A stretch of DNA of 64,000 nucleotides, from contig NZ_ABIZ01000001.1 of the NCBI RefSeq assembly GCF_000172155.1, positions 2,139,105-2,203,104 on the forward strand, given 5' to 3'. Source of the stretch: Verrucomicrobium spinosum DSM 4136 = JCM 18804 (GTDB taxonomy: Bacteria > Verrucomicrobiota > Verrucomicrobiia > Verrucomicrobiales > Verrucomicrobiaceae). The notes beneath the pieces are model-generated. The model was not told where the DNA came from and did no database searches. It worked only from the letters and a program-made list of their open reading frames with translations. Of the stretch, positions 3,325-57,385 are shown piece by piece. The position numbers and the translations under genes were made by a program. Within the stretch, counting starts at the first letter, position 1, and every line of letters begins with the position of its first letter.

Positions 3325-5127
3325 ATGCGACTGCTCCTCGCCAATCCTGCCGGCCTCTGGGCCCTCCTGGCCATCCCGGCTGTGTTGGTCATCCACTTCC
3401 TTCAGGAGCGCTCCCGGCGGCTGCGCGTGAGCACGCTCTTCCTCCTGGAAAGAGTGAGGCCGGAGAGCACGGGCGGGGCCAAGTTTGAGCGGCTGCGGAA
3501 CTCGGTGCCTCTCTGGCTCCAGCTCCTGGCGGCGCTCATCTTGACCTGGCTGCTGGTGGAGCCCCGCTGGATCAAGGAAGACTCCCGCCAGACGGTGGTG
3601 GTGGTGCTGGACAGCTCCGTCTCCATGGAGGCGTTCAAGGAGCCAACGCGTGAGCTGCTGGCAGAAAAACTGCGGGGCTGGAGCCGGGCGGCAGCGCGGA
3701 CGGAATGGCACCTGCTGGAGACGGATGTGCGCAAGCCCACTCTCTACACCGGGGCGGAGCTGGCCGGAGTGCTGCGGGCGTATGATGGCTGGAAGCCTGT
3801 GCTGGGCACTCACCGGCCGGATGAAGCCCTGCAAGTGGGCTCGGGTTTGGTGAAAGAACATGGCATCGTCATCTTTGTGACGGATCGCAAAGTGGACGTG
3901 GCTGCCGGAGTGGCGGTGCTCTCTGCGGGAGAGGAGATTGAGAACGTTGGCTGGGCCGGGGTGGAGACGACTCTGGTCAAGCCGGGGGTTGCCGACTCAG
4001 GCGTGAAGTGGTCGGTGCTGGTACGCAACTATGGCAAAGCACCGCAGACCCGCCAGTGGTGGGTGGAGCAGGAGGGGGGCACGGAGCCGAAGCGCTCCAG
4101 TCTGACCTTGGCCCCAGGACAGACCGGAGAACTGGGCGGCGAGCTGCCGCCGGGCGTGGATCGGGCCACGCTGGTGCTGAGCGGAGACCAGTTCACCTGG
4201 GATGATCGCATGCCCTTGCAACGCCCCGTGGAACGGGTGGTGAATCTTGCGTTTGAGGCGGGTTCGGCCCCTGGGGCGGTGCTCAAGAAGATGATGCAGG
4301 CGTTGGATGGCGTGGCCGTGACGCCCGTCACCCAAGCACCTGACCTCACGGTGGCGGAACTGGGCAACCCGGTGAACACGGATGCGGTGCAGATTCTGGG
4401 GGGCGGAGGCGAGAATCTGCCGCTGGACGGCAGCTACACCGTGGCGGAGGACCATCCGCTCACCCGGGACCTCAACTGGATGAGCCTGTTGACTCCTCGT
4501 CCCATGGAGCTGGGCCTGACAGACCGGGACGAACCGTTGCTCTGGAAGGGCGGGCGCCCGCTGGCCCTGCTCCGGCATGACCTCACCGCCACCGGCACGC
4601 CAGTGCGTCGCCTGCTCCTGGCCTGGGACCTCTCCCAGTCGAATGCCGCCCGGCACCCGGCGTTGCTCGTGATGCTGCATCGTTATGTGGAGCAGTTGCG
4701 CCGGGCGAAGCGCGAGCCGTGGGCAGGCAACTTCGAAGCGGGTCAGAATCTGGATGTGCCTCCGCCGCTGGCCGCTTCTGGGGCAGCCCCGGCTGCGCTC
4801 ACGCTGCGTCGCGATGATGGCACTCGCGCAGAGTTCACGGGGCGCGTTCCGGATGGAGTCGGCTTCTTTGACCTGAAGGAAGGTGGTAAAACCATGATCC
4901 GTGGGGCCATTCATTTTGCCGACACTCGTGAAGCAGATTTCCGTGAGGCCGCTCCGCTGGATACAGTGGATGCGCGGCGCTGGGAGGCCGCCCTCAAACA
5001 AACGGAGGCCGATCCGCTGACGGGCCTGTGGGTGCTGCTGGTGCTCGGCTGTCTGCTGGGGGCCTGGGGCTGGCGGTCCGGCCCGGCGCGTGCGTCTGCC
5101 GGCTCCATCGTCGCCGCCCGAAGCTGA
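3325..5127 (+). CDS. BatA-N-terminal-domain (aerotolerance regulator N-terminal) membrane protein
   Basis: N-terminus MRLLLANPAGLWALLAIPAVLVIHFLQERSRRLRVSTLFLL…LQLLAALILTWLLVEPRW has the typical BatA_N architecture. C-terminal TM helix. Confidence 0.65.
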   Translation: MRLLLANPAGLWALLAIPAVLVIHFLQERSRRLRVSTLFLLERVRPESTGGAKFERLRNSVPLWLQLLAALILTWLLVEPRWIKEDSRQTVVVVLDSSVSMEAFKEPTRELLAEKLRGWSRAAARTEWHLLETDVRKPTLYTGAELAGVLRAYDGWKPVLGTHRPDEALQVGSGLVKEHGIVIFVTDRKVDVAAGVAVLSAGEEIENVGWAGVETTLVKPGVADSGVKWSVLVRNYGKAPQTRQWWVEQEGGTEPKRSSLTLAPGQTGELGGELPPGVDRATLVLSGDQFTWDDRMPLQRPVERVVNLAFEAGSAPGAVLKKMMQALDGVAVTPVTQAPDLTVAELGNPVNTDAVQILGGGGENLPLDGSYTVAEDHPLTRDLNWMSLLTPRPMELGLTDRDEPLLWKGGRPLALLRHDLTATGTPVRRLLLAWDLSQSNAARHPALLVMLHRYVEQLRRAKREPWAGNFEAGQNLDVPPPLAASGAAPAALTLRRDDGTRAEFTGRVPDGVGFFDLKEGGKTMIRGAIHFADTREADFREAAPLDTVDARRWEAALKQTEADPLTGLWVLLVLGCLLGAWGWRSGPARASAGSIVAARS

Positions 5128-5162
5128 GCGGCGTGTCTGTTTCCTGAAACTCTGAATTTCTC

Positions 5163-7727
5163 ATGCGTCTCCTTTCCCCTGAATGGTTGCTTCTCATCCC
5201 CGTGCTGGCGGTGGCGGGGTGGTTCTGGCGTGGACTGAAGCTGGCGCGGCCGTTGCGTGTGCTTTGTCTCCTGGTCGTGACCGCTCTGCTGGTGCAGCCG
5301 CAGGTGCGCAAGCAAAGTGATGCGCTGGACCTCTGGGTGCTGGTGGACCAGTCGGAGTCGGCGGGCGATCTGTTGGGCCCCAGAATCTCGGAGTGGGAGA
5401 CCATTCTGGAGAAGTCCCGTCGCCCGTCTGACCGGCTCCACTTTGTGGACTTTGCAGGGGAGGCGGTGACTCGTGGAGCGCAGATTCGCGCGGGCTCCGG
5501 CACCCAGTATGCGGGCCCTCGTGGGGCCACGCGGCTGAAGTCGGCAGCTTCCTATACCCTGGCGCAGATCCCAGAGAGCCGGGCCAGTCGCCTGCTGGTG
5601 CTGACTGACGGTTTCAGTACGGAGCCTCTGGACGGCCTGGCCGAGCGCCTGCGTGAGCAGAGGGTGCCGCTTGACTACCGCCTCGCGGCCCAGAGCACCG
5701 TGGGGGACTGGCGCATTGCCGCGCTGGCCCTGCCGCGTCGCGTCCAGTTGCGTGAGGCCTTCCTGGCTGAGGTGGTGGTGCTGGGGGATCGCGATGGCAA
5801 GATCCCGGTGGAACTGACCCGGAACAACCAGAGCATTGGCCGGCGGGAAGTGGAGGTCATCAATGGCGTGGGACGTCTCCGCTTCACTGATCGTCTCGGC
5901 GTGGCAGGGGCCTTTCACTATGAGGCCCGGCTCATGGCGGCGGATGATGCGGTGGCAGGAAACAATGCGGCCTCCCAGTGGGTGGAGGTGCAGGGCGGCC
6001 CGCGCGTGGTGCTGGCGACTGCGTATGAGAATGACCCCCTGGCCCAGGCGCTCCGGGCCCAGGGGTTCGAGGTTGAAGCCATCACCGATCTGGGCCTGCT
6101 CAATGTGGGCACGCTCACCGGGACCAAGGTGGTGGTGCTCAACAACGTGCCCGCCTACCGCCTGGATCCTCGGTTCACCAAGGCCCTGGATTTCTTTGTC
6201 AACCATCAGGGCGGCGGTCTGGCGATGGTCGGCGGCAAGCACAGCTTCGCCGCGGGTGGCTATTTTGGATCCCCGGTGGAGCCGCTGCTGCCGGTGAGCA
6301 TGGAGTTGAAACAGGAGCACCGGAAGCTGGCGGTGGCCATGGCCATTGTCATGGATCGTTCTGGCAGCATGTCGATGACGGCCCCCGGCACCTCCCTGGT
6401 GAAGATGCAACTGGCCAACGAAGGCGCGGCACGCGGCATCGAACTGCTGGGGGACAGTGACATGGCCTGTGTCTATGCCGTGGACAGTGAGCCGCATGAA
6501 GTGAGTCCGTTGGTGGCGGTGGGGAGCAATCGTGGCACACTCCAGAATGCCGTGCGTCGCGTGGAGAGCACGGGCGGGGGCATCTATGTTTACCAGGGAC
6601 TGAAGCGGGCCTGGGCTGAGCTGGAAAAGGCAAAGGTGGGACAGCGCCACATCATCCTGTTCGCGGATGCGGCAGATGCTGAGGAGCCCGGCGAATACAA
6701 GGCCCTGCTGGAGAAGATGAGCAAGGAGAAGGGGACGGTAAGCGTCATTGGTCTGGGCACGGAGAAAGACAGTGACGCGGATTTCCTGAAGGATGTGGCG
6801 CTGCGCGGCAATGGGCGCATCTTCTTTAACTCCGACCCGAAGGAACTGCCCGCCCTCTTTGCGCAGGAGACGGTGGCCGTGGCGCGTTCAGCCTTCATCG
6901 AGGAGCCCATTGATCTGAAGGGTACCCCGGGTTGGATGGAGATGGCCTCGGGCAATCTGGAATGGCTGTCCAAGGTGGACGGCTACAACCTGAGCTATCT
7001 GCGGCCGGGGGCGACCCAAGCCGCCGTGAGTGGGGATGAGTACGCCGCGCCGCTGGTGGCCTTCTGGCAGCGGGGGGCGGGGCGGGTGGCTACGGTATCG
7101 TTTCCCCTGGGGGGCGATTTCTCGGCCACGACGCGGAGCTGGCCGGGTTACGGTGGGTTTGCCCAGAGCCTGGCCCGTTGGCTGATGGGGGAGACCGTGC
7201 CGCCTGGGGTGGGGCTGCGCACGGCTCTGGAAGGCAGCAAGCTGAGGGCCGATCTGTTCTATGATGAGAGCTGGAATCAGCGCATCGCCGCGCATGCGCC
7301 GGAGCTGGTCCTGGTTCAAGGGGATGACATCCAGGCGGCCCCGGCAGAGTGGGAGCGTCTGGCCCCGGGACACTACCGGGCGACGGTGGAGTTGGTGCCT
7401 GGAACCTATCTGCGTGGGGCGGTGAAGATCGGCGATGCAGCGTTCGCCTTCGGTCCCGTGAATGCCGTCACGAATCCCGAATGGAGCTTTGATCGCAAGC
7501 GGCTTGATGAACTGAAGTCCGTGAGCGCCCGCAGTGGTGGGGCGGAGCGGGTGGACCTGAGCGATGTGTGGAATGCGCCGCGCCCCCCGGCATGGAAGGA
7601 TTTCCAGAGATGGCTGGCAGTGGCTCTCGTGCTGGTCCTGCTGCTGGAGGCCTGGCAGACGCGGACGGGGTGGGGAGTGGGATGGTTCAAGCGGGCAGAC
7701 AAGCAGGCGCCCGAAGCCGTGTCTTGA
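5163..7727 (+). CDS. BatA-like von Willebrand factor A domain membrane protein
   Basis: N-terminal BatA_N-like TM segment. vWA core VAMAIVMDRSGSM…GGGIYVYQGLKRA. GATase1-like block VVVLNNVPAYRLD…GGGLAMVGG. C-terminal TM helix. 854 aa. Confidence 0.7.
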   Translation: MRLLSPEWLLLIPVLAVAGWFWRGLKLARPLRVLCLLVVTALLVQPQVRKQSDALDLWVLVDQSESAGDLLGPRISEWETILEKSRRPSDRLHFVDFAGEAVTRGAQIRAGSGTQYAGPRGATRLKSAASYTLAQIPESRASRLLVLTDGFSTEPLDGLAERLREQRVPLDYRLAAQSTVGDWRIAALALPRRVQLREAFLAEVVVLGDRDGKIPVELTRNNQSIGRREVEVINGVGRLRFTDRLGVAGAFHYEARLMAADDAVAGNNAASQWVEVQGGPRVVLATAYENDPLAQALRAQGFEVEAITDLGLLNVGTLTGTKVVVLNNVPAYRLDPRFTKALDFFVNHQGGGLAMVGGKHSFAAGGYFGSPVEPLLPVSMELKQEHRKLAVAMAIVMDRSGSMSMTAPGTSLVKMQLANEGAARGIELLGDSDMACVYAVDSEPHEVSPLVAVGSNRGTLQNAVRRVESTGGGIYVYQGLKRAWAELEKAKVGQRHIILFADAADAEEPGEYKALLEKMSKEKGTVSVIGLGTEKDSDADFLKDVALRGNGRIFFNSDPKELPALFAQETVAVARSAFIEEPIDLKGTPGWMEMASGNLEWLSKVDGYNLSYLRPGATQAAVSGDEYAAPLVAFWQRGAGRVATVSFPLGGDFSATTRSWPGYGGFAQSLARWLMGETVPPGVGLRTALEGSKLRADLFYDESWNQRIAAHAPELVLVQGDDIQAAPAEWERLAPGHYRATVELVPGTYLRGAVKIGDAAFAFGPVNAVTNPEWSFDRKRLDELKSVSARSGGAERVDLSDVWNAPRPPAWKDFQRWLAVALVLVLLLEAWQTRTGWGVGWFKRADKQAPEAVS

Positions 7728-35934: not shown

Positions 35935-37032
35935 CTAGTTCAACTTGGCCAGCTCTTTGGGCAGGAATTTGCCGTTCTTGCGGATCAGCACGTTGTCGAA
36001 CCAGATCTCACCCCCGCCGTAGTCGGGGCGCTGGATATTGACGAGGTCCCAATGCACCTGACTGCGGTTGCCATTGTCTGCCACACCTTCATAAGCCTGG
36101 CCGGGCGTGAAGTGGAAGGAGCCGGCGATCTTCTCGTCGAACAAAATGTCGCGCATGGGCTCGCGAATCTCGCGATTGAAGCCAATGGCGAACTCGCCGA
36201 TGTAGCGGGCGCCTTCGTCGCTGTCGAGGATCTTGTTGATGGCCTTCGTGTTGTTGGCCGTGGCATTGACGATCTTGCCCTTGCTAAACTCGAGGCGGAC
36301 GTTGTCGAAAGCGATGCCCTGGTAAACGGTCGGGGCATTATAGGAGATGACGCCCTCCACGCTGTCGCGGACCGGAGCAGAGAAGACTTCGCCGTCGGGG
36401 ATGTTGTGGGTGCCGCCACAGGCGATGGCCTTGAGACCCTTGAGGCTGAATTTCAGATCGGTGCCGGGCCCCTTGATGTGGACCTGGTTGGCTTTGTCCA
36501 TGAGCTTCTTCAGGGAGTTCATGGCGGGGAGGAGGGCCTTGTAGTCCAGCAGGCAGACGCGGAAGTAGAAGTCCTCGAAGGCCTCGGTGCTCATGCTCGC
36601 CTGTTGGGCCATGGCGGAAGTGGGCCAGCGCAGGACGCACCACCGGGTGTTGTTGACGCGCTCGTTGATGACGGGGCGCATCTTCTCCATGACCAGCTTC
36701 ATCTTGTCCGCGGGAACGTCCGCCATCTCGGTGATGTTATGGCTGCCGCGGATGGCGATGTACACCTCGATCTCCTTCATGAGATCGAGGTTGTTCTTGG
36801 CGAGGAGATCATAGCCATTCGGGTCCGCGTGCTTCATGAGCTCGCGGGTGATGGTGGCGTCGTGGAGTTTGACAACAGGAATGGCTTTGGCAGCGACGAC
36901 GGCACGGATCAGGGCCAGGCAGATGGAGTTCGGCGCGTCGTAAATGTCGAGTAGGACGCGGTCGCCTTTTTTCACACTGGTCGAATAGCGGACGAGTTGA
37001 GTGGCGAGTTGATCTATGCGTGGGTCGTGCAT
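35935..37032 (-). CDS. Aminopeptidase, M29 family (AmpS/aminopeptidase T-like)
   Basis: Length and blocks ([15 protein letters not shown]…HWDLV) are consistent with thermophilic-type M29 aminopeptidases. 48-bp gap to the polymerase gene upstream. Confidence 0.7.
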
Positions 37033-37080
37033 GGCGATTTTGTAACGGCAGCCCCAGCAAAGCGCAAGCCCGATGCGGCG

Positions 37081-38298
37081 TCAGCTTTCGGTTTCAGGAT
37101 CAGGGATGCGCGTGAAGGCGATTCGCATGGGGGTGTACTCCAAAGCCCCCAGAGCGCCGCCAAAGCACACGGCGTTCTGGCCGTAACGTTTGTTGATGGC
37201 ATCCATCAGTCCGCAGAGTTGCTGTTGTCGTTTGTCAAATTCCAGCAGGCTCGGCGTGACCTTGGTGGCAGGGGCAAGGCCGGAGAGGTTGACGCCGGTG
37301 GCCTTGGGCTCCAGGCCCGCTCGACGGGGACGTCGATCCCAGAGCACTTCGAAGGCTTCCAACAGGCGGAAGGTGTCCTGCGTATCACAGAAGGAGATGT
37401 CGGAGGACCAGGAGGGGCTGTTGGTGTACTTGATGAACAATTCAAGGCGGCAGGTGAAGTGGTCCATTTTCCTCAGGCGCATCGCCGCTTTCTGAAGAAG
37501 GCGGCAGCTCACGGCGTGAGTGCCAAGATCGTTCCGCAGCCGGGTGGGAAGCACGTGGGAATGGCCGATGACGCGGCGTTGGGTGGGCGGCGGTTCGGTC
37601 ACCTCGCCCCGAAGCCAGTGCCAGAGGTGGACGCCGCCAATACCACCCCAGACGTGATGGAGGGTTTCGCGAGTCGCGGAGGTGAGCTGCGCCACGGTGC
37701 GTATGCCGTGGGCGACCAGGCGGGTTTCCATTTTCTGGCCGATCCCGCAGAAGTCCCTGAGCTTCAACTGGTGCAGGCAGTGGGGGAGATCCGCCTGCTC
37801 GATCATGAAGAGGCCATCGGGCTTGCCCATATCCGAGGCGAGCTTGGCGAGGAAGCGATTCGGAGCGATGCCGATCGAGTAGGTGAGCCAGTCGCCCACC
37901 TGGCTGGTGAGCGTGGCCTTGAGCGAGCGTGCAAACGCCTCCGCCTGCGTGCGATTCGTCACGGATTTCGGCAGTAGGCACCAAGCTTCATCAATGGACA
38001 TGACCTCCGCCACCTGGATGCGAGACTCCAGAGCGGTGACGAAGCGCTGATGAAACTCCGTGTACAGACGCGGCCGGGATTCTACAAAGACGATCTCCGG
38101 GCACAACTGCCGGGCATCCCGCACGCGAGTGCCCGTCTTCACCCCAAACCGGCGGGCCTCCTTGCTCGCGGCAATGCAAGACGTGGACTCCGACTTCACC
38201 GGCACCACTCCCACCGGCCTTCCCCTCAGGCGTGGATCGAGCTGCTGCTCCACCGAGGCAAAGAAGCTATCCAGATCAAGAATAAGGTCCGGTCCCAT
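37081..38298 (-). CDS. Y-family translesion DNA polymerase (DinB/UmuC/ImuB-like) with C-terminal extension
   Basis: LILDLDSFFASVEQ…RGRPVGVV…IAASKEARRFGVKTG…SIDEAW is the Y-family palm. A LexA-box candidate lies 13 bp upstream. Confidence 0.75.
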   Translation of the reverse strand: MGPDLILDLDSFFASVEQQLDPRLRGRPVGVVPVKSESTSCIAASKEARRFGVKTGTRVRDARQLCPEIVFVESRPRLYTEFHQRFVTALESRIQVAEVMSIDEAWCLLPKSVTNRTQAEAFARSLKATLTSQVGDWLTYSIGIAPNRFLAKLASDMGKPDGLFMIEQADLPHCLHQLKLRDFCGIGQKMETRLVAHGIRTVAQLTSATRETLHHVWGGIGGVHLWHWLRGEVTEPPPTQRRVIGHSHVLPTRLRNDLGTHAVSCRLLQKAAMRLRKMDHFTCRLELFIKYTNSPSWSSDISFCDTQDTFRLLEAFEVLWDRRPRRAGLEPKATGVNLSGLAPATKVTPSLLEFDKRQQQLCGLMDAINKRYGQNAVCFGGALGALEYTPMRIAFTRIPDPETES

Positions 38299-38310
38299 TC
38301 TAAATAATAC

Positions 38311-38324
38311 TGTTCACAAGAACA
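38311..38324. promoter_or_regulatory. Candidate LexA operator, Verrucomicrobia type (TGTTC-N4-GAACA)
   Basis: TGTTCACAAGAACA is a perfect palindrome in the 73-bp divergent intergenic region between the Y-family polymerase and the RAYT-like gene. The motif class was reported for Verrucomicrobia SOS regulons (established knowledge, recalled). Confidence 0.55.
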
Positions 38325-38371
38325 TTTAAAATTGCATTTGCATCAATAAAGTGTCTGTCCCTTTATAAGGT

Positions 38372-39436
38372 ATGCGGCAATCTCGTTTGAAGGCTCCGAA
38401 GGAATGGCCGGTGGCTTACTACCACTGTGTGTCGCGGGTGGTGGATCGCCGATTCGTGTTTGAGAAGGAGGAGAAGCGCCGGTTCGTGGAGTTGATGCGG
38501 TTTTATGAGCGGTTCTGTCAGGTGCAGGTGGTCACGTTCTGCGTCATGTCGAACCACTTTCATCTCTTGCTGGAGGTGCCGCAGCGCCCGCAGGTAATGC
38601 CGTCGGAGGAGTGGCTGATCGGGCACATCAAGGGGTGCTTTGGTGAGGCGATGGCGGGGGTGGTCGCGGAGCAGATCCGTCAGTTTCGTCAGGTCGGGGC
38701 AGACGGAGCGGCGGCAGAGGTGATCCAGGGCTGGTTTTCCCGCATGTGGGATGTGAGCCAGTTCATGAAGACGCTGAAGCAGCGCTTCACGCAGTGGTTC
38801 AACAAGCACCATGAGCGCCGGGGGACGCTGTGGGAGGACCGGTACAAGAGCACGATGGTGGAGGGAGGGCCAGCAGCACTGGGCATCATGGCCGCTTACA
38901 TAGACCTGAATCCGGTGCGTGCTGGTTTGGTGAAGGACCCGAAGGACTACCCATGGAGTGGGTACGGTGCCGCAGTGGCAGGGGCGAGCCGAGCAGGGAG
39001 GGGGCTGGCGATCGTGGCGAACTGCCTGGCCCAGCGCGAATTGCGACCCGCAGAGGTTTTGGCTCTCTACAGGCAGATGCTTTATGTCGCGGGAAATGCA
39101 GGTGATGATCTCAGCATTCAGCTTCGCAGGGAAGCCGGGACACAGAAAGCGGGCCTCCACAACGACGAAGTGACCAAGGTGCACGCCCAAGGTGGAAAAC
39201 TCACGCTACAGGAGATGCTGCGCTGTCGGGTGCGCTACTTCACGGCAGGAGCGGCGGTGGGCAGTCGGGAGTTTGTGAATGCCGTGTTTGATTCTGCCCG
39301 CGGTCGTTTTGGGGCGACACGGATCGAAGGAGCCCGCCCCATGCGAGGAGCGGATTTCATGGGGCTGTGCAGCCTGCGTGATCTGCAAAAGCGCGTGATC
39401 ACCCATCCCTCAGACGCGGGTGGAGGCGTCAACTGA
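38372..39436 (+). CDS. IS200-like HuH Y1 transposase homologue (RAYT-like, transposase_17 family)
   Basis: CVMSNHFHLLLEVP is the HuH motif. LWEDRYKSTMVE is the Tyr region. YIDLNPVRAGLVKDPKDYPWSGY. 354 aa, single copy, no terminal IRs, so probably domesticated. Confidence 0.7.
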   Translation: MRQSRLKAPKEWPVAYYHCVSRVVDRRFVFEKEEKRRFVELMRFYERFCQVQVVTFCVMSNHFHLLLEVPQRPQVMPSEEWLIGHIKGCFGEAMAGVVAEQIRQFRQVGADGAAAEVIQGWFSRMWDVSQFMKTLKQRFTQWFNKHHERRGTLWEDRYKSTMVEGGPAALGIMAAYIDLNPVRAGLVKDPKDYPWSGYGAAVAGASRAGRGLAIVANCLAQRELRPAEVLALYRQMLYVAGNAGDDLSIQLRREAGTQKAGLHNDEVTKVHAQGGKLTLQEMLRCRVRYFTAGAAVGSREFVNAVFDSARGRFGATRIEGARPMRGADFMGLCSLRDLQKRVITHPSDAGGGVN

Positions 39437-41037: not shown

Positions 41038-41247
41038 GGCAGGGATCGAATGTTATGGGGCATTCGGGGCCGCGCGTTGGCGCGGAAAGGGAAGCGACTG
41101 TACACATCTTACCACCTGGGTCAAGTTTATTTCCCCGTCTGCGGAATGTGCCGGGAAACGGTGAGATTGTCATTCGGATGCAAAACGCCGCGTCTCAGGC
41201 CGTTGTACGCGTGATTGCTCCACGCGATCCTTTTCCAAAACGGTGTC

Positions 41248-44200
41248 ATGTCCAGACCCAGTTTGCCCCTGACCCACCTCACCCTGCTTGGGATTGGGGT
41301 GATTTCGCTTCCATTGATGGGGGCGGGCGCGGAGCGAACGCCTGATTTCGACCGCGATGTGCGCCCGATCCTCGCAGAGCATTGCCTGGAGTGCCACAGT
41401 CTGGACAAGGCCAAGGGCGGGCTGGCCCTTACCACAAAGGGCGGTGCCATGAAGGTGCTCAAGAGCGGGCATGCTGGCATTGTCCCGGGCGATGCCGGGG
41501 CCAGTGCGGTGATTGCCCGGGTGGAAACGCATCAGATCGACGAACGCATGCCTCCCGAGGACCGCAAGCCTCTCACACCCAGCCAAGTGGCCACCCTGCG
41601 GGCTTGGGTGGCGGCGGGTGCCGACTGGCCGGCGCACTGGGCCTATCGTCCTCTGGCCCAGCCCATCCTGCCTGAGGTGCGAAACACTCAGTGGCCTCGG
41701 GGAGAGATCGACCGATTCGTCCTGGCCAAACTGGAGGCCGCTGGCATTCAGCCCTCCCAGGAGGCGAGCCGTGCCACGCTCATTCGCCGGGTCTATTTGG
41801 ATCTTCTAGGCCTGCCTCCCACTCCCAGACAGGTGGAGGACTTCGTAGGAGATTCTTCTTCTGATGCCTATGAGAGGATCGTGGATGCCGCTCTGGCCTC
41901 CCAGCACTTTGGCGAACGTTGGGGCCGACACTGGCTGGACATGGCCCGCTATGCGGACAGTGACGGGTATGAGAAAGACCGGCCACGACCTGATGCTTGG
42001 CGTTATCGCGACTGGGTGATCCAGGCCTTCAATGACGATCTGCCGTTCGACCGCTTCACCATTGAGCAGCTGGCGGGGGACCTGCTTCCAGCGGCAGGAC
42101 CTGAGCAGGTGCTGGCCACCGCCTTTCATCGGCAGACGCTGACGAACACCGAAGGAGGGGCTGATCAGGAGCAGTTCCGAGTCGAAGCCGTGTTTGATCG
42201 GACTGAGACGACAGGCTCCGTTTGGCTGGGGCTGAGCGTTGGATGCGCCCGCTGCCATTCGCACAAGTACGACCAGATCTCCCACCAGGAGTACTTCCAG
42301 CTATACGCCTTCTTCAACAATAGCGATGAGGCGACCCGGCAGGTCGCCACCTCCCAGCGTGCCTGGCAGGAGTATGAGAAACAACACGGCGCTGACGCCG
42401 CCAAGCTCGGTGTCCTGCAGAAGCGGCTGGATGAGGCACGGGCCGATCTTCGCGGCCGTCTGGCCGAATGGGAGAGAGTTTTGCAGGAGCGGCTGGCGGC
42501 CGCCCGTCGAAATCCGGCCAAGGCCATTTATGAACCGCTGGTGGTTTCAGGCGTGCACTCGTCAGGCAGGCAGACCACCTTCACCCGCCAGGAGGATGGC
42601 TCCTGGCTGGCCGGCAGTGAGCAATCGAAACAAGAGATCTATGAAATCACGGTGGACTCCTGGCGCGAGCCGCTGGTGGCCCTGCAATTGGAAGTGTTGC
42701 CTGACTCTTCCCTACCCGGCGGTGGACCCGGACGGGCCGGGAAGGGAAACTTTGTGCTGAGCGAGCTCAAGGTTTCCCTGGGGCGGGATGCGGCCTCCGC
42801 CGTGCCGGTGGCATTGCACTCTCCAGCGGCGGATTTTGAACAAAAAAGCTTCACCGGCAAAGCTGCGGTGGACGGGGATCGCGAGACGGGATGGGCCGTG
42901 CAACCCCAGTTTGGCAAGGCTCACCAGCTTACGGTTCAGTTCGAGGAGCCCGCCAAACCAAGTCCGGGAATGAAGCTCTTCGTCAACCTGCACCAGGCCT
43001 ACAAAAGCGGGAACCACAACATCGGACGGTTCAGACTGCTGGGGAGTGCGGTGCTCACGGAGGAGTCGGTGGTGCCGGCAGAAGTGCTGCGGGTGTTGAA
43101 TGAGGAGCCGCTCCGCCGCAACGAGGTCGTGATCAAACCGCTGCTGGACTGGGTGGAGAAGCGCGACCCGCAGACCAAGGCTGCGACCGACGCCCTGGAG
43201 GCAGCCCGTGGACGACTGCCGAAGGCCCCGCTCATGGATGTCCGGGTCATCGCCCAGCGAACTCAGGACACCAGGGTCACGCATCGTCTGCACCGTGGTG
43301 ATTTCCTGAGCCCCGCGGAGACCGTTTCTCCGGGTGGGCTCGCGGTCCTGCCAGCGCTGGCCGGGCGGAGCGGGAATGGCAGGGCGGCAGACCGCCTGGA
43401 TCTGGCGCAGTGGTTGGTAAGTCAGGAGAACCCGCTGACTCCCCGTGTCGCCGTGAACCACATCTGGGCTCGTCTCTTTGGTGAAGGATTGGTTCGCACG
43501 GTGAATGACTTCGGGGTGCGGGGCGAGCGCCCGTCTCATCCTGAACTGCTCGACTGGCTGGCTGGGGATTTTGTGTCTCGAAAAGGCTGGAGCCGCAAGC
43601 GCTTCATCAAGACCATCCTGATGTCCGCCACCTACCGGCAGTCCAGCGGCCATCGGCCGGAGCTGGCCGATGTTGATCCCTTGAACCGCCTGCTGCATCG
43701 CCAGAACCGCCTGCGCGTGGAGGCGGAGATTGTGCGGGATCTTCATCTGTCCGCCAGCGGGCTGCTGTGCCCCAGGGTGGGCGGCCCCAGCGTCTATCCG
43801 CCCCTGCCGCCGAACATCGCGGAGTTGAGCTATGCCAACAACTTCAAGTGGGCCACCAGCAGCGGGGAAGATCGCTATCGGCGCGGGATGTACACGTTTT
43901 TCAAACGGACTGCGCCCCATCCCGACCTGACGACCTTTGACTGTCCAGACGCCAACACGACCAACGTGAAACGCACGGTGAGCAACACCCCGTTGCAGGC
44001 ACTCACAACACTCAATGCCGGCACCTTTGCGGATGCGGCGAAGGGGCTGGCTACGCGCGTGCTAAAGGAAGGGCCGACCGCCGATGCCCAGGGGTTGGAC
44101 CGGTTGCTGGTCATTTGTCTCTCCCGCCATGGCGCGGCTGGTGAACTGGCTTCACTCCAGGGGTTGCTGAACGATTCTCGCCGCTGGTATCTCGCGCACC

Positions 44201-44325
44201 CGGAGGAGGCGGCAAAGTTCGTGAAGGGGTTCGAGGTGTCATCCGTGGCTCCCGCCGAGCTCGCCGCCTGGGCGGCCACGGCGCGCATGGTGCTGAATCT
44301 GGACGAATTCATCACGCGAGAATAA
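41248..44325 (+). CDS. DUF1549/DUF1553 domain protein (PSCyt1 + PSCyt2 + PSD1; Planctomycete-type cytochrome domain protein)
   Basis: Start at MSRPSLPL (signal peptide). CLECHS heme-like motif. VYLDLLGLPPTPRQVEDF (DUF1549). C-terminal DUF1553 blocks (FDCPDANTTNVKRTVSNTPLQALTTLN). Confidence 0.85.
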   Translation: MSRPSLPLTHLTLLGIGVISLPLMGAGAERTPDFDRDVRPILAEHCLECHSLDKAKGGLALTTKGGAMKVLKSGHAGIVPGDAGASAVIARVETHQIDERMPPEDRKPLTPSQVATLRAWVAAGADWPAHWAYRPLAQPILPEVRNTQWPRGEIDRFVLAKLEAAGIQPSQEASRATLIRRVYLDLLGLPPTPRQVEDFVGDSSSDAYERIVDAALASQHFGERWGRHWLDMARYADSDGYEKDRPRPDAWRYRDWVIQAFNDDLPFDRFTIEQLAGDLLPAAGPEQVLATAFHRQTLTNTEGGADQEQFRVEAVFDRTETTGSVWLGLSVGCARCHSHKYDQISHQEYFQLYAFFNNSDEATRQVATSQRAWQEYEKQHGADAAKLGVLQKRLDEARADLRGRLAEWERVLQERLAAARRNPAKAIYEPLVVSGVHSSGRQTTFTRQEDGSWLAGSEQSKQEIYEITVDSWREPLVALQLEVLPDSSLPGGGPGRAGKGNFVLSELKVSLGRDAASAVPVALHSPAADFEQKSFTGKAAVDGDRETGWAVQPQFGKAHQLTVQFEEPAKPSPGMKLFVNLHQAYKSGNHNIGRFRLLGSAVLTEESVVPAEVLRVLNEEPLRRNEVVIKPLLDWVEKRDPQTKAATDALEAARGRLPKAPLMDVRVIAQRTQDTRVTHRLHRGDFLSPAETVSPGGLAVLPALAGRSGNGRAADRLDLAQWLVSQENPLTPRVAVNHIWARLFGEGLVRTVNDFGVRGERPSHPELLDWLAGDFVSRKGWSRKRFIKTILMSATYRQSSGHRPELADVDPLNRLLHRQNRLRVEAEIVRDLHLSASGLLCPRVGGPSVYPPLPPNIAELSYANNFKWATSSGEDRYRRGMYTFFKRTAPHPDLTTFDCPDANTTNVKRTVSNTPLQALTTLNAGTFADAAKGLATRVLKEGPTADAQGLDRLLVICLSRHGAAGELASLQGLLNDSRRWYLAHPEEAAKFVKGFEVSSVAPAELAAWAATARMVLNLDEFITRE

Positions 44326-44347
44326 CCCGCCACCTCACCCCATCCCG

Positions 44348-45850
44348 ATGACCGCCATGCACCCCCTTGCAGCCCAGACCCGCCGGGAATTTCTGACCAC
44401 CACCGCCAGCGGTCTGGGCATGATGGCGCTGGGATCCATGCTCACGCAGGAGGGGCTCTTGGTGCCTGCCAGCGCCGCGGCCGATGGGCAGGGAGGCGTG
44501 GTGTTGGATCCGCTGGCGCCACGCCTTCCGCACTTCCCGGCCCGGGCCAAGAATTGCATCTGCATTTTCATGGAGGGGGCTCCCAGCCAGATGGATCTCT
44601 TCGATCCCAAACCCAAGCTCAATGAACTGCATGGCCAGCCGTTGCCGGAGAGCATGACGAAGAACGTCCGGTTCGCCTTCATCAAGAAGGAGACCGCCCG
44701 CCTGTTGGGGAGTCCGCGCACTTTCAGCAAACACGGCGAGTGCGGCATGGATTTTAGCGACCTGCTGCCGCATCTGGCGACCTGTGCCGACGATCTGCTC
44801 ATGGTGCGGTCGATGCACACGGACCAGTTTAATCACCACCCAGGCCAGCTTCTTTTGCACAGTGGACGGGCCACGTTTGGCCTGCCAACGATGGGTTCGT
44901 GGTTAAACTACGGCCTGGGCAGCGAGTCCCAAAATTTGCCGGGCTATGTCGTGCTGACCGCCGGGCGGGGGACCAGCGGGGGGGCTTCCCTCTGGCAGAG
45001 CGGATTCCTGCCCAGCCACTATGCCGGAGTGCTGTTCCGCAATCAGGGTGAGCCGGTGCTCAATTTGCAAAATCCGGAAGGGCTTCCACCAGAGTTGCAA
45101 CGCCGCGGGTTGGACGCGCTGATGGAGCTGAACCAGGCCCGATTTGACCAGTTCAAGGATCCCGAGATTCGCAGCCGCATCTCAGCTTACGAACTGGCCT
45201 TCCGCATGCAGAGTGCCGCGCCGGAGCTTATCGATCTAAAAGGGGAGACGGCGCAGACGTTGGAGATGTACGGGGTGAACCGCAAAGACATGGACGTGAA
45301 GGCCTCCCGGGCCGGCGGTCCCGGCCAGTACAAGAGTTTTGCCTCGAACTGTCTGGTGGCCCGACGCCTTGTGGAGCGCGGGGTGCGCTTCGTCAGCATC
45401 ATGCATGCGTCCTGGGATCATCACTCCAACCTGAACCCGGAGCTGGCCTTTAACTCCGGCATGGCGGACCAGCCGATTGCCGCGCTCATCAAAGATCTGA
45501 AAGACCGCGGCCTGCTGGACTCCACCATGGTCATCTGGTGCAGCGAGTTTGGCAGGACTCCGCTCGGTGAGAACCGGGGTGGCAATCCCAATGTTACAGG
45601 GCGGGATCATCATCCCTTTGCCTTCACCATGCTCATGGCCGGCGGCGGCATCAAGGGCGGGCAGACCTATGGTGAGACGGATGAAATCGGCTGGAGCATC
45701 ACCAAGGATCCCGTGCATATCAATGACTTCCACGCCACGCTGTTGCACCTCTTTGGTCTGGATCACCTGAAACTCACGCATCGGTTCCAGGGCCGGGACT
45801 TCCGGCTGACCGATGTGGGGGGCAGGGTGATTCCGGAGTGGGTGGCGTGA
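44348..45850 (+). CDS. DUF1501 domain protein (sulfatase-like), Tat signal
   Basis: RREFLTTTASGLGMMALG is a twin-arginine signal. FMEGAPSQMDLFDPKP…WCSEFGRTP…GRDHHP are hallmarks of DUF1501. The canonical partner of DUF1553 proteins. Confidence 0.85.
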   Translation: MTAMHPLAAQTRREFLTTTASGLGMMALGSMLTQEGLLVPASAAADGQGGVVLDPLAPRLPHFPARAKNCICIFMEGAPSQMDLFDPKPKLNELHGQPLPESMTKNVRFAFIKKETARLLGSPRTFSKHGECGMDFSDLLPHLATCADDLLMVRSMHTDQFNHHPGQLLLHSGRATFGLPTMGSWLNYGLGSESQNLPGYVVLTAGRGTSGGASLWQSGFLPSHYAGVLFRNQGEPVLNLQNPEGLPPELQRRGLDALMELNQARFDQFKDPEIRSRISAYELAFRMQSAAPELIDLKGETAQTLEMYGVNRKDMDVKASRAGGPGQYKSFASNCLVARRLVERGVRFVSIMHASWDHHSNLNPELAFNSGMADQPIAALIKDLKDRGLLDSTMVIWCSEFGRTPLGENRGGNPNVTGRDHHPFAFTMLMAGGGIKGGQTYGETDEIGWSITKDPVHINDFHATLLHLFGLDHLKLTHRFQGRDFRLTDVGGRVIPEWVA

Positions 45851-45884
45851 TTGCCGGATCTTGTGAGAGTTGCGGAGCAGGGTT

Positions 45885-46550
45885 GTGGGGAAGAGCCGTC
45901 CCGGCTCTTGGGGGAGCTGGGTGGTGCGTGGACAAGAACCGAGACGGTTCTTCTACCATGGCGGTTGCCCGCGAGAGAGAAGGTAGAGGAGCCGTCCCGG
46001 CTCTTGGGTGCGCTGGATGGTGCGGGGACAAGAACCGGGACGGTTCTTCTACCCTGGCTGATGTCCGCGAGAGGGAATGTGGAAGAGCCGTCCCGGCTCT
46101 TGGGTGCGCTGGGTGACGCGTGGACAAGAACCGGGACGGTTCTTCTACCGTGGCGGTTGCCCGCGAGAGAGAAGGTAGAAGAGCCGTCCCGGCTCTTGGG
46201 TGCGCTGGATGGTGCGTGGACAAGAACCGGGACGGTTCTTCTACCGTGGCGGTTGCCTGCGAGAGAGAAGGTAGAGGAGCCGTCCCGGCTCTTGGGTGCG
46301 CTGGATGGTGCGGGGACAAGAACCGAGACGGTTCTTCTACCGTGGCGGTTGCCTGCGAGAGAGAATGTAGAAGAGCCGTCCCGGCTCTTGGGTGCGCTGG
46401 GTGACGCGTGGACAAGAACCGGGACGGTTCTTCTACCGTGGCGGTTGCCCGAGAGAGAGAATGTAGAAGAGCCGTCCCGGCTCTTGGGTGCGCTGGGTGA
46501 CGCGTGGACAAGAACCGGGACGGTTCTTCTACTATGGCGGATTTCCGCAC
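45885..46550. repeat. REPIN array: 7 tandem 96-bp units, each GTAG + AGAGCCG-TCC-CGGCTCT hairpin, 26-nt spacer and inverted AGAACCG-GGA-CGGTTCT hairpin
   Basis: Unit starts at 45890, 45986, 46082, 46178, 46274, 46370 and 46466 (exact 96-bp period). Fills the whole DUF1501-RAYT intergenic space. Confidence 0.9.
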
Positions 46551-46573
46551 GTAGCTTAGAGCTGTGAGGATAT

Positions 46574-47302
46574 TCAAGTGTTGGTTCCTTCGCTCAACTG
46601 CCTATTGCTCCCCACATATTCTGGATGTTCGCGAATGTAGTTCCGGATTCGCTCCAGACTGGCGCGGCTGCGCACGATGTGGTCGAAAGACTCGCGTTGC
46701 CATACCCTGCGATTCGGAAAATGAGATCGCAGCCCAGGCAGATGATCATCGATGATTTTGTTGAGTCGATGCGCTGAGTAGGACTTCCAAGAATGCAGAA
46801 TCTTGGAGAGATCATGTTCGGGATTTGGCGTCAAGATGGCGTGGACATGGTTTGACGCTACGACGTACTCGTCCAACTCGTAGCGAGCTCCAGCAAAATG
46901 ACGGATGGTTTGGGATGCGGAGTCCTTTGCGGGTTGATGGCTTAAAAGGCATGAACCACTGTTTGCATCCAACCAGCGCTGGAGACGCCTGGGAAATCGA
47001 TCATAGTACTCCTGACGGGTTAGCTTGTCATGAGGTTCGGGATGGCGCTTGAGCCAGTCTTCTCGATCCAGATGCCATTGATGTAGCTTGTCTTGAGGCA
47101 AAGCATCAGCCAGTCGAAAGGTGATGAAATAGGTCGTCGAGGCCTGCCTCCAATGTGGAAGATTCCCCGAAAGCACTTCTGTCGGAACGAGCTCTGAGTA
47201 GTAGACCCGGCTCTCATCTGGATTGGGAACGGGTTTATCCGGGGAATCCATGCGAAAACGAAGTGGCAGGTGTGCGGTAAAAGCCTGCCCATGTTGCGCC
47301 AT
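46574..47302 (-). CDS. REP-associated tyrosine transposase (RAYT; IS200-like HuH Y1 family)
   Basis: YYSELVPTEV… leads into the N-terminal TnpA_REP-like segment. HuH motif VVASNHVHAIL. WQRESFDHIVRS Tyr region. 242 aa, typical RAYT size. Flanked on both sides by REPIN arrays. Confidence 0.8.
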   Translation of the reverse strand: MAQHGQAFTAHLPLRFRMDSPDKPVPNPDESRVYYSELVPTEVLSGNLPHWRQASTTYFITFRLADALPQDKLHQWHLDREDWLKRHPEPHDKLTRQEYYDRFPRRLQRWLDANSGSCLLSHQPAKDSASQTIRHFAGARYELDEYVVASNHVHAILTPNPEHDLSKILHSWKSYSAHRLNKIIDDHLPGLRSHFPNRRVWQRESFDHIVRSRASLERIRNYIREHPEYVGSNRQLSEGTNT

Positions 47303-47319: not shown

Positions 47320-47575
47320 CCGACTCTTGGGAGTGCTGAGCCGTGCGGGGGCAAGAACCGGGACGGTTCTTCTACCCTGGCTGATGTCCGCGAGGGGGAA
47401 AGTGGAAGAGCCGTCTCGGCTCTTGATGGCGCTGAGCCGTGCGGGGGCAAGAACCGGGACGGTTCTTCTACCCTGGCTGATGTCCGCGAGGGGGGAAAGT
47501 GGAAGAGCCGTCTCGGCTCTTGATGGCGCTGGGCCGTGCGGGGCCAAGAACCGGGACGGTTCTTCTACTGTCCGG
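47320..47575. repeat. REPIN array (2.5 units of the same 96/97-bp unit) on the other side of the RAYT gene
   Basis: caagaaccgggacggttcttctaccctggctgatgtccgcgagggggaaagtggaagagccgtctcggctcttgatggcgctg repeats at 47352, 47448 and 47545. Confidence 0.85.
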
Positions 47576-57356: not shown

Positions 57357-57385
57357 GGTAGAAGAGCCGTCCCGGCTCTTGGCTT
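57357..57385. repeat. Solo REP (same family as the RAYT-flanking arrays)
   Basis: gGTAGAAGAGCCGTCCCGGCTCTTGG is identical to the array consensus, including GTAG. Confidence 0.65.

Follow-up and report, generated by a model that had tools for sequence, protein, structure and literature searches.

In Escherichia coli dinB and the polY-type genes of Bacillus subtilis, all of which encode Y-family DNA polymerases, a single site for the LexA dimer overlaps the core promoter, and repression is released by the RecA-stimulated autocleavage of LexA. We analysed a 64-kb stretch of the contig NZ_ABIZ01000001.1 of Verrucomicrobium spinosum DSM 4136 (hereafter the window, to which all coordinates refer unless another locus is named), where a palindrome of the form TGTTC-N4-GAACA lies between dinB (VSP_RS08510), which codes for such a polymerase, and a divergent gene for a Y1 transposase-like protein of the HUH type (VSP_RS39135, hereafter the HUH gene). 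The locus appears to share with the dinB/DNA polymerase IV (Pol IV) promoters found in E. coli and in B. subtilis a single LexA site at the core promoter of the gene for a Y-family polymerase. It differs from those of other phyla in its operator, which is TGTTC-N4-GAACA and not CTGT-N8-ACAG or GAAC-N4-GTTC, and in its dinB transcript, which is probably leaderless.

The motif TGTTC-N4-GAACA was defined as the motif that LexA binds in the Verrucomicrobia by Erill, Campoy, Kilic and Barbe in 2016 (PMC4951493), who applied MEME to the lexA, recA and imuA promoters. In the same work, the V. spinosum recA promoter was mutated base by base and assayed by electrophoretic mobility shift assay (EMSA), and single substitutions in the arms abolished binding. 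V. spinosum LexA also bound the promoter of VSP_RS08510, the Pol IV homologue, and two groups of Pol IV homologues were placed within the LexA regulon of the phylum (PMC4951493).

For the divergent gene, the described class to be considered is TnpA_Y1 subclass 2.3. According to Quentin et al. (2018; PMC6006769), who described it mainly from Chromatiales and Alteromonadales, this subclass is RAYT-related, devoid of repetitive extragenic palindromes (REPs) and of unknown function. Its Table 1 entry gives the motifs NHYH, WE and YVDLNP, a median length of 325 aa and a two-part C-terminal tail; an insertion of ∼55 aa between beta3 and alphaC and about four diverged copies per genome are also reported.

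The palindrome coincides with a published LexA-binding site

The palindrome TGTTCACAAGAACA, at positions 38311–38324 (no strand assigned), reads TGTTC-ACAA-GAACA, having two perfect and intact pentamer arms around the 4-nt spacer ACAA. It is situated in the 73-bp region between the two divergent genes, with one edge 13 bp from the ATG of the polymerase gene (38298, minus strand) and its end 48 bp from the ATG of the HUH gene (38372, plus strand). It lies within the promoter region of dinB (−250 to +50), next to the putative promoter elements described below.

We compared this region with the published LexA sites. Positions 38270–38368 are identical, with zero mismatches and as a single occurrence in the window, to the first 99 bases of the EMSA probe "VSRS08510R" in the supplementary oligonucleotide table of Erill et al. 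(PMC4951493). The site table of that paper gives TACTGTTCACAAGAACATTT at NZ_ABIZ01000001.1 2177411–2177431, 9 and 44 bp from the flanking genes, and we observed that the published site, the gene lengths and both gene distances match the window exactly. Hence, the operator of VSP_RS08510 described in 2016 and the palindrome are the same DNA, without any difference in the operator itself. The score of this site in supplementary Table 4 is 20.3–20.4, the best V. spinosum site having a score of 23.5. The supplement also lists the site as lying 44 bp upstream of VSP_RS39135, named "hypothetical protein" without comment, and this tag corresponds to the divergent HUH gene of the window. VSP_RS39135 occurs in table rows only, and the words transposase, IS200 and COG1943 are absent from the text and supplements of the paper; the divergent gene was neither recognised as an HUH/Y1 gene nor discussed, and promoter geometry and in vivo induction were not part of that study.

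In the window, the motif matched once, and still only once when one mismatch was tolerated. The expected number of exact matches is 0.06 per window, and an exact match was obtained in 6 of 100 shuffles. By chance alone, a lone match of this kind would be only somewhat improbable. What decides the matter lies outside the window, in the identity with the published probe and in the conservation upstream of the orthologues. The palindrome might otherwise be a chance occurrence, or an element unrelated to LexA such as a binding site for a different regulator or a hairpin of the HUH enzyme; the ∼6% frequency among the shuffles speaks for the former and the binding of hairpins by HUH enzymes for the latter. 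However, LexA binding has been published for exactly this DNA, genomes devoid of the HUH gene retain the half-sites upstream of dinB, the HUH family has a separate conserved dyad of its own, and as single-stranded DNA the palindrome can form only a 5-bp stem, a weak hairpin whose z-score is not significant. We consider such an origin of the palindrome extremely improbable. Therefore, we concluded that it is very probably the LexA operator of the V. spinosum dinB promoter, as already known from the 2016 paper.

A preliminary description of this DNA, made from the sequence alone, had proposed a Verrucomicrobia-type LexA operator and an SOS-regulated translesion polymerase. The published EMSA on the identical DNA and the presence of the box upstream of the orthologues argue for both proposals. 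The sites looked for at lexA, recA and imuA are present according to Erill et al., and the suggested binding assay with purified LexA had in effect been published for this fragment (PMC4951493). The distances and motifs given in that description (13 and 48 bp on the two sides of the box, a 48-bp gap downstream of dinB, the HFHLL motif and a length of 354 aa for the HUH protein) were all correct.

The operator accompanies dinB in related genomes

The conservation of the box was examined at 80 polymerase loci, using one genome per species. A perfect box precedes the polymerase start by 26–30 bp in Verrucomicrobium sp. BvORR034 (L001; polymerase 97% identical, spacer GTGC), a Verrucomicrobium metagenome-assembled genome (MAG) (L061; 82%, ACAC), a Verrucomicrobia MAG (L002; 64%, ATAT) and a Verrucomicrobiota MAG (L003; 55%, AAAA). 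It is also perfect at −85 in a Luteolibacter MAG (L026; spacer ATTT), and at the same position as in the window in a BvORR106-like contig (L101; spacer TTAC). Invariant arms around freely varying spacers characterise a dyad that is bound by a protein. The box was absent from the Opitutae dinB orthologues among the scanned loci, which agrees with the small LexA regulons reported for Opitutae (PMC4951493).

Adjacency of the HUH gene to dinB is confined to the genus Verrucomicrobium (L001, L061 and L101/L102), whereas L002, L003 and L026 retain the box without an HUH neighbour. Conversely, homologues of the HUH gene that are 37–60% identical and lie in nine further contexts (L081/L082, L083, L103, L104, L105, L107, L108, L109, L113 and L115) have no box between −300 and +50, even with one mismatch allowed. 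As the box is present at dinB loci lacking the HUH gene and absent from HUH homologues elsewhere, the comparative evidence favours dinB, and not the HUH family, as the owner of the operator. The conservation upstream of HUH-less dinB orthologues and the absence at HUH homologues elsewhere are among the findings that go beyond the 2016 paper.

The operator probably fills the spacer of a leaderless dinB promoter

The polymerase gene (37081–38298, minus strand) encodes a 405-aa DinB/Pol IV homologue having the Pfam domains IMS (2.4e-38), IMS_C and IMS_HHH and the catalytic-type motifs DLDSFFASVE and SIDEA. Although the NCBIfam Pol IV equivalog models match the protein, it falls below the cut-off of every one of them. 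By sequence it can be placed among the Pol IV-like polymerases as a divergent member, consistent with its assignment to COG0389 in PMC4951493. The dN/dS ratio (nonsynonymous over synonymous divergence) of dinB is 0.04–0.13 among the Verrucomicrobium lineages.

We also observed that relatives of this polymerase with 40–53% identity (L004–L080) are scattered among Pseudomonadota (Thiobacillus, Variovorax, Pseudoxanthomonas), Opitutae, Planctomycetota, Acidobacteriota and Bacteroidota. The patchiness suggests that the dinB subtype may have spread horizontally.

A candidate −10 hexamer for dinB, TATTAT (38304–38309, minus strand), lies 1 nt past the box, with 5 nt separating it from the ATG. Its assignment comes from conservation: in the four Verrucomicrobium lineages the position is occupied by a TATnnT hexamer (TATTAT in the window, and TATTCT, TATCGT and TATTGT in the others), and the more distant loci have TATATC (L002) and TTAATC (L003) there. 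The distance from the hexamer to the dinB start is 5–6 nt in the Verrucomicrobium lineages and in L002, and a Shine–Dalgarno sequence is absent. A leaderless pattern, TTG..-17-TA...T-ATG, was found at 4 of 40 genes of the window, and hence is not a general rule there.

These observations are best described by a dinB promoter that is probably of the leaderless type, with the box filling the spacer between the −35 and −10 elements. A weak AT-rich −35 and the conserved TATnnT −10 would flank the box, which would itself constitute the spacer, and with the −10 only 5–6 nt before the start codon the dinB mRNA would be leaderless. Repression by occlusion classically relies on an operator placed in the −35/−10 spacer. 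Being placed in this spacer, a LexA dimer bound to the box would block RNA polymerase, and upon DNA damage the RecA-stimulated self-cleavage of LexA would free the translesion polymerase gene for transcription.

The divergent gene encodes a REP-less protein with a RAYT-like fold

The HUH gene (38372–39436, plus strand) encodes a 354-aa RAYT-related protein that matches Pfam Y1_Tnp (1.6e-16) and carries an SNHFHLL motif. It belongs to a very large family, in which 7972 of 8000 scored candidates had E-values below 1e-5, with a length of 338–359 aa in most homologues; the source names of its members include "transposase", "RayT" and, wrongly, "CheW". Among 22 aligned homologues, H62 and H64 (NHFH), W154-E155 and Y176-I-D-L-N180-P are invariant, and both the catalytic core (HUH plus Y-x-x-x-N/Q) and the Y1 fold are present. 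Residue 158, a tyrosine in V. spinosum, was also considered as the catalytic tyrosine and rejected, as this position varies between Y and F in the same alignment.

Searches of the PDB with the HUH sequence and with the family profile gave no meaningful match. We then relied on an AlphaFold model of the protein (pLDDT 85.8, pTM 0.84), whose best PDB match by Foldseek is 4er8, the E. coli RAYT–REP complex (E 2.6e-5, target TM 0.76, root-mean-square deviation 2.7), followed by the TnpA proteins of IS608 and ISDra2. The modelled protein thus resembles E. coli RAYT/TnpA_REP (PDB 4ER8) in its best structural match and in the HUH and Y...N catalytic motifs, but differs from it in having no flanking REPs and ∼190 extra residues, and in falling below the NCBIfam equivalog cut-off: it scores 67.2 bits against the REP_Tyr_transpos model (NF047646), for which the cut-off is 80, and its match is confined to the C-terminal half of that model. 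Inverted- and direct-repeat searches revealed neither insertion sequence (IS) ends nor REPs flanking the gene. Hence, the RAYT-like fold and catalytic motifs ascribed to the divergent gene in the preliminary description hold, whereas the REPs that accompany a classical RAYT gene, and are dispersed through the genome as well, were not found at it.

The family motifs here are NHFH, LWED and YIDLNP, and the AlphaFold model has three extra helices (79–122) after the HUH strand. When compared with subclass 2.3 as described by Quentin et al. (PMC6006769), the protein appears to agree in the NH[F/Y]H, WE and Y[I/V]DLNP motifs, the ∼55-aa insertion after beta3, the lack of REPs, the occurrence of several diverged copies per genome, a length of ∼325–354 aa and a long C-terminal tail. 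The difference is that the present family is abundant in Verrucomicrobiaceae. By comparison with these criteria, subclass 2.3 is the best-fitting assignment for the HUH protein, and subclass 2.1 is also possible.

An IS200/IS605 insertion sequence was considered for this gene and ruled out. Such elements occur as several near-identical copies with subterminal hairpins at either end, often along with tnpB. The HUH gene, by comparison, is present as one copy, in synteny, in the four Verrucomicrobium lineages, the paralogues examined are 45–86% identical (two copies in Phragmitibacter flavus are 84% identical), no downstream k-mer or right-end motif is shared among the homologues, and tnpB was not a neighbour in any of the contexts examined. 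A second copy of the 354-aa family was not detected in the window by tblastn and the family hidden Markov model, six-frame fragments included. Among the four lineages its dN/dS is 0.09–0.19, with dS up to 1.5, which indicates a stable, selected resident and not an active insertion sequence. Taken together, sequence and model describe a vertically inherited, REP-less gene under purifying selection whose product has a RAYT-like fold. It would have become the head-to-head neighbour of dinB in the ancestor of the genus Verrucomicrobium.

A family-specific dyad and the likely HUH promoter

A 30-nt block, TTTGCATCAATAAAGTGTCTGTCCCTTTAT (38337–38366, plus strand), is invariant in the four Verrucomicrobium lineages, as judged from the alignment and from exact matches in L001, L061, L101 and L102. 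It includes the −35-like hexamer TTGCAT (38338–38343). Between the more distant of these lineages the synonymous sites of the flanking genes differ at 49–65%, yet the block is unchanged.

Within this block, directly upstream of the HUH gene, resides an imperfect dyad, ATAAAGTGTC-T-GTCCCTTTAT (38346–38366, plus strand), which is specific for the HUH family. In eight unrelated contexts, it precedes the ATG of HUH homologues by 56–58 nt, has the consensus ATAAAGKGWC-T-GTCCCTTTAT across the family, and is usually followed by an invariant TTGC, ∼17 nt, a TAC..T-like hexamer, 6–8 nt and the ATG. Such dyads occur in L103 (3935–3960 and 4571–4596), L104 (about 2185–2210) and L105 (3895–3960, two copies), and also ∼57 nt before the gene start in L107, L108, L109, L113 and L115. 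In Verrucomicrobium, the dyad is only 5 nt before the HUH ATG and TTGCAT is immediately upstream of it. The dyad of L115 is a perfect 23-nt palindrome forming a stable hairpin (z = −3.7); that of V. spinosum forms a weak one (−1.7 kcal/mol, z-score not significant). Further copies were not found in the window, and the dyad is not described in the literature examined, including the available part of PMC6006769. It could be the site of a regulator or the DNA target of the HUH enzyme itself.

In Luteolibacter sp. Populi (L103; CP161812.1), a 572-aa "transposase" (4001–5719) is apparently a fusion of a truncated and a full copy. Inside this annotated open reading frame (ORF) the dyad and TTGC block recur at about 4571–4636, before a second start at 4637.

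By analogy with the family pattern, the likeliest HUH promoter is TTGCAT-17 nt-CTTTAT-5 nt-ATG, which lies wholly downstream of the LexA box. The box is ∼14 bp upstream of this likely −35 and does not overlap it, its centre being near −54 relative to the HUH ATG. With the promoter located downstream of the box, LexA would not cover the HUH core promoter.

Control of the HUH gene by LexA is possible

The preliminary description had also suggested that the divergent gene may share the operator, so that one LexA dimer at 38311–38324 would repress both divergent promoters and the HUH enzyme would be induced with the polymerase after damage. The geometry gives some reason for this suggestion. The intergenic region is so short (73 bp) that the dinB and HUH promoters stand back to back, the head-to-head arrangement has persisted while synonymous sites neared saturation (dS 1.2–1.5), and supplementary Table 4 of PMC4951493 assigns the site to a position upstream of VSP_RS39135 as well. 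On the other hand, the box tracks dinB, as the HUH-less loci L002, L003 and L026 keep it and the nine HUH homologues in other contexts lack it. Moreover, the family places its TTGC-17-TAnnnT block directly before the ATG, the V. spinosum equivalent (TTGCAT) is downstream of the box, and LexA bound near −54 would be outside the HUH core promoter. We therefore regard a common operator as rather doubtful and favour one that serves dinB.

Several points weigh against an operator serving dinB alone with the promoter positions given above. The spacing from the box to the HUH start is fixed at −61/−62 in the four lineages, as a shared operator would also predict, and box and dyad are not separated by any indel. 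The hexamer CTTTAT, assumed to be the HUH −10, is poor, and a scan of the intergenic region for consensus sigma-70 promoters detected none. The literature searched contains no transcription start, RNA-seq or damage-induction data for V. spinosum, so that the promoter positions derive from conservation only, and the published EMSA reports binding in vitro, not repression in vivo.

Control of the HUH gene by LexA, for example through crowding of the back-to-back promoters or interference with an AT-rich upstream segment, is thus a possibility. Nothing relevant on LexA-controlled IS200-type genes was found in the literature searched. A more elaborate proposal, in which LexA co-represses dinB and a REP-less, RAYT-fold HUH single-strand DNA nuclease and the dyad is the target of this enzyme or its autoregulatory site, draws on the long-standing head-to-head arrangement and on the 73-bp intergenic region, which has hardly changed. 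It appears unlikely to us.

The downstream aminopeptidase most likely has its own promoter

Downstream of dinB, after a gap of 48 bp, is a gene for a 365-aa M29 aminopeptidase (35935–37032, minus strand; Pfam Peptidase_M29 6e-55). It had been suggested that the two genes are co-transcribed, in which case the box would control a dinB–aminopeptidase operon and M29 would be SOS-inducible. Both genes are on the same strand, a minus-strand terminator-like hairpin was not detected in the gap (37033–37080), and in L002 the two genes follow in the same order, 42 bp apart (L002 3298–3339). In the absence of a terminator between the two genes, read-through from dinB is possible. However, the gap contains a promoter-like sequence, TTGCGC-17 nt-TACAAA-6 nt-ATG (37033–37080, minus strand), which is conserved in L001, L101 and the distant relative L002 and suggests an independent promoter of the leaderless type. 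In L002, M29, in the same position, is 90% identical whereas DinB is only 64% identical, a difference more in keeping with a housekeeping gene than with an SOS accessory. The gene following dinB is on the opposite strand in L003, and the supplements of Erill et al. (2016) mention neither VSP_RS08505, the tag next to dinB, nor the term "aminopeptidase". These features weaken the case for co-transcription, and an SOS-controlled operon seems unlikely to us. Most likely, the aminopeptidase has its own promoter, with some read-through from dinB being possible.

Other features of the window

A second Y1_Tnp gene (46574–47302, minus strand) encodes 242 aa (Pfam 7e-11) and has a low GC content at third codon positions (0.55). 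Arrays of GTAG-tagged palindromes, GTAGAAGAACCGTCCCGGTTCTTG, lie on either side of it, at 45933–46532 and 47352–47568, and these palindromes are also present at 57358–57381. At up to 3 mismatches there are 17 copies against 0 expected, in alternating orientation and with a period of about 96–97 nt. In its sequence features, this locus is a classical RAYT/REPtron, of a family distinct from that of the 354-aa HUH gene. An ORF within the REP array (45851–46567, plus strand) is probably not a gene.

Between these loci, 41215–45850 carries a PSCyt1-PSCyt2-PSD1 (DUF1549/DUF1553) gene followed by a DUF1501 gene. Such a pair is typical of Planctomycetes and Verrucomicrobia and is ordinary for the lineage.

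Implications

The operator upstream of dinB belongs to the experimentally supported sites by which the SOS regulon of the Verrucomicrobia is defined, and in itself it adds nothing new. Its divergent neighbour would matter if it were under the same control, since DNA damage would then induce an enzyme that nicks and joins single-stranded DNA together with the translesion polymerase. SOS control would be the first physiological cue for a large uncharacterised class of proteins, tying the processing of single-stranded DNA to the damage response. If it is not SOS-controlled, the HUH gene would be a neighbour that merely abuts a LexA-regulated promoter.

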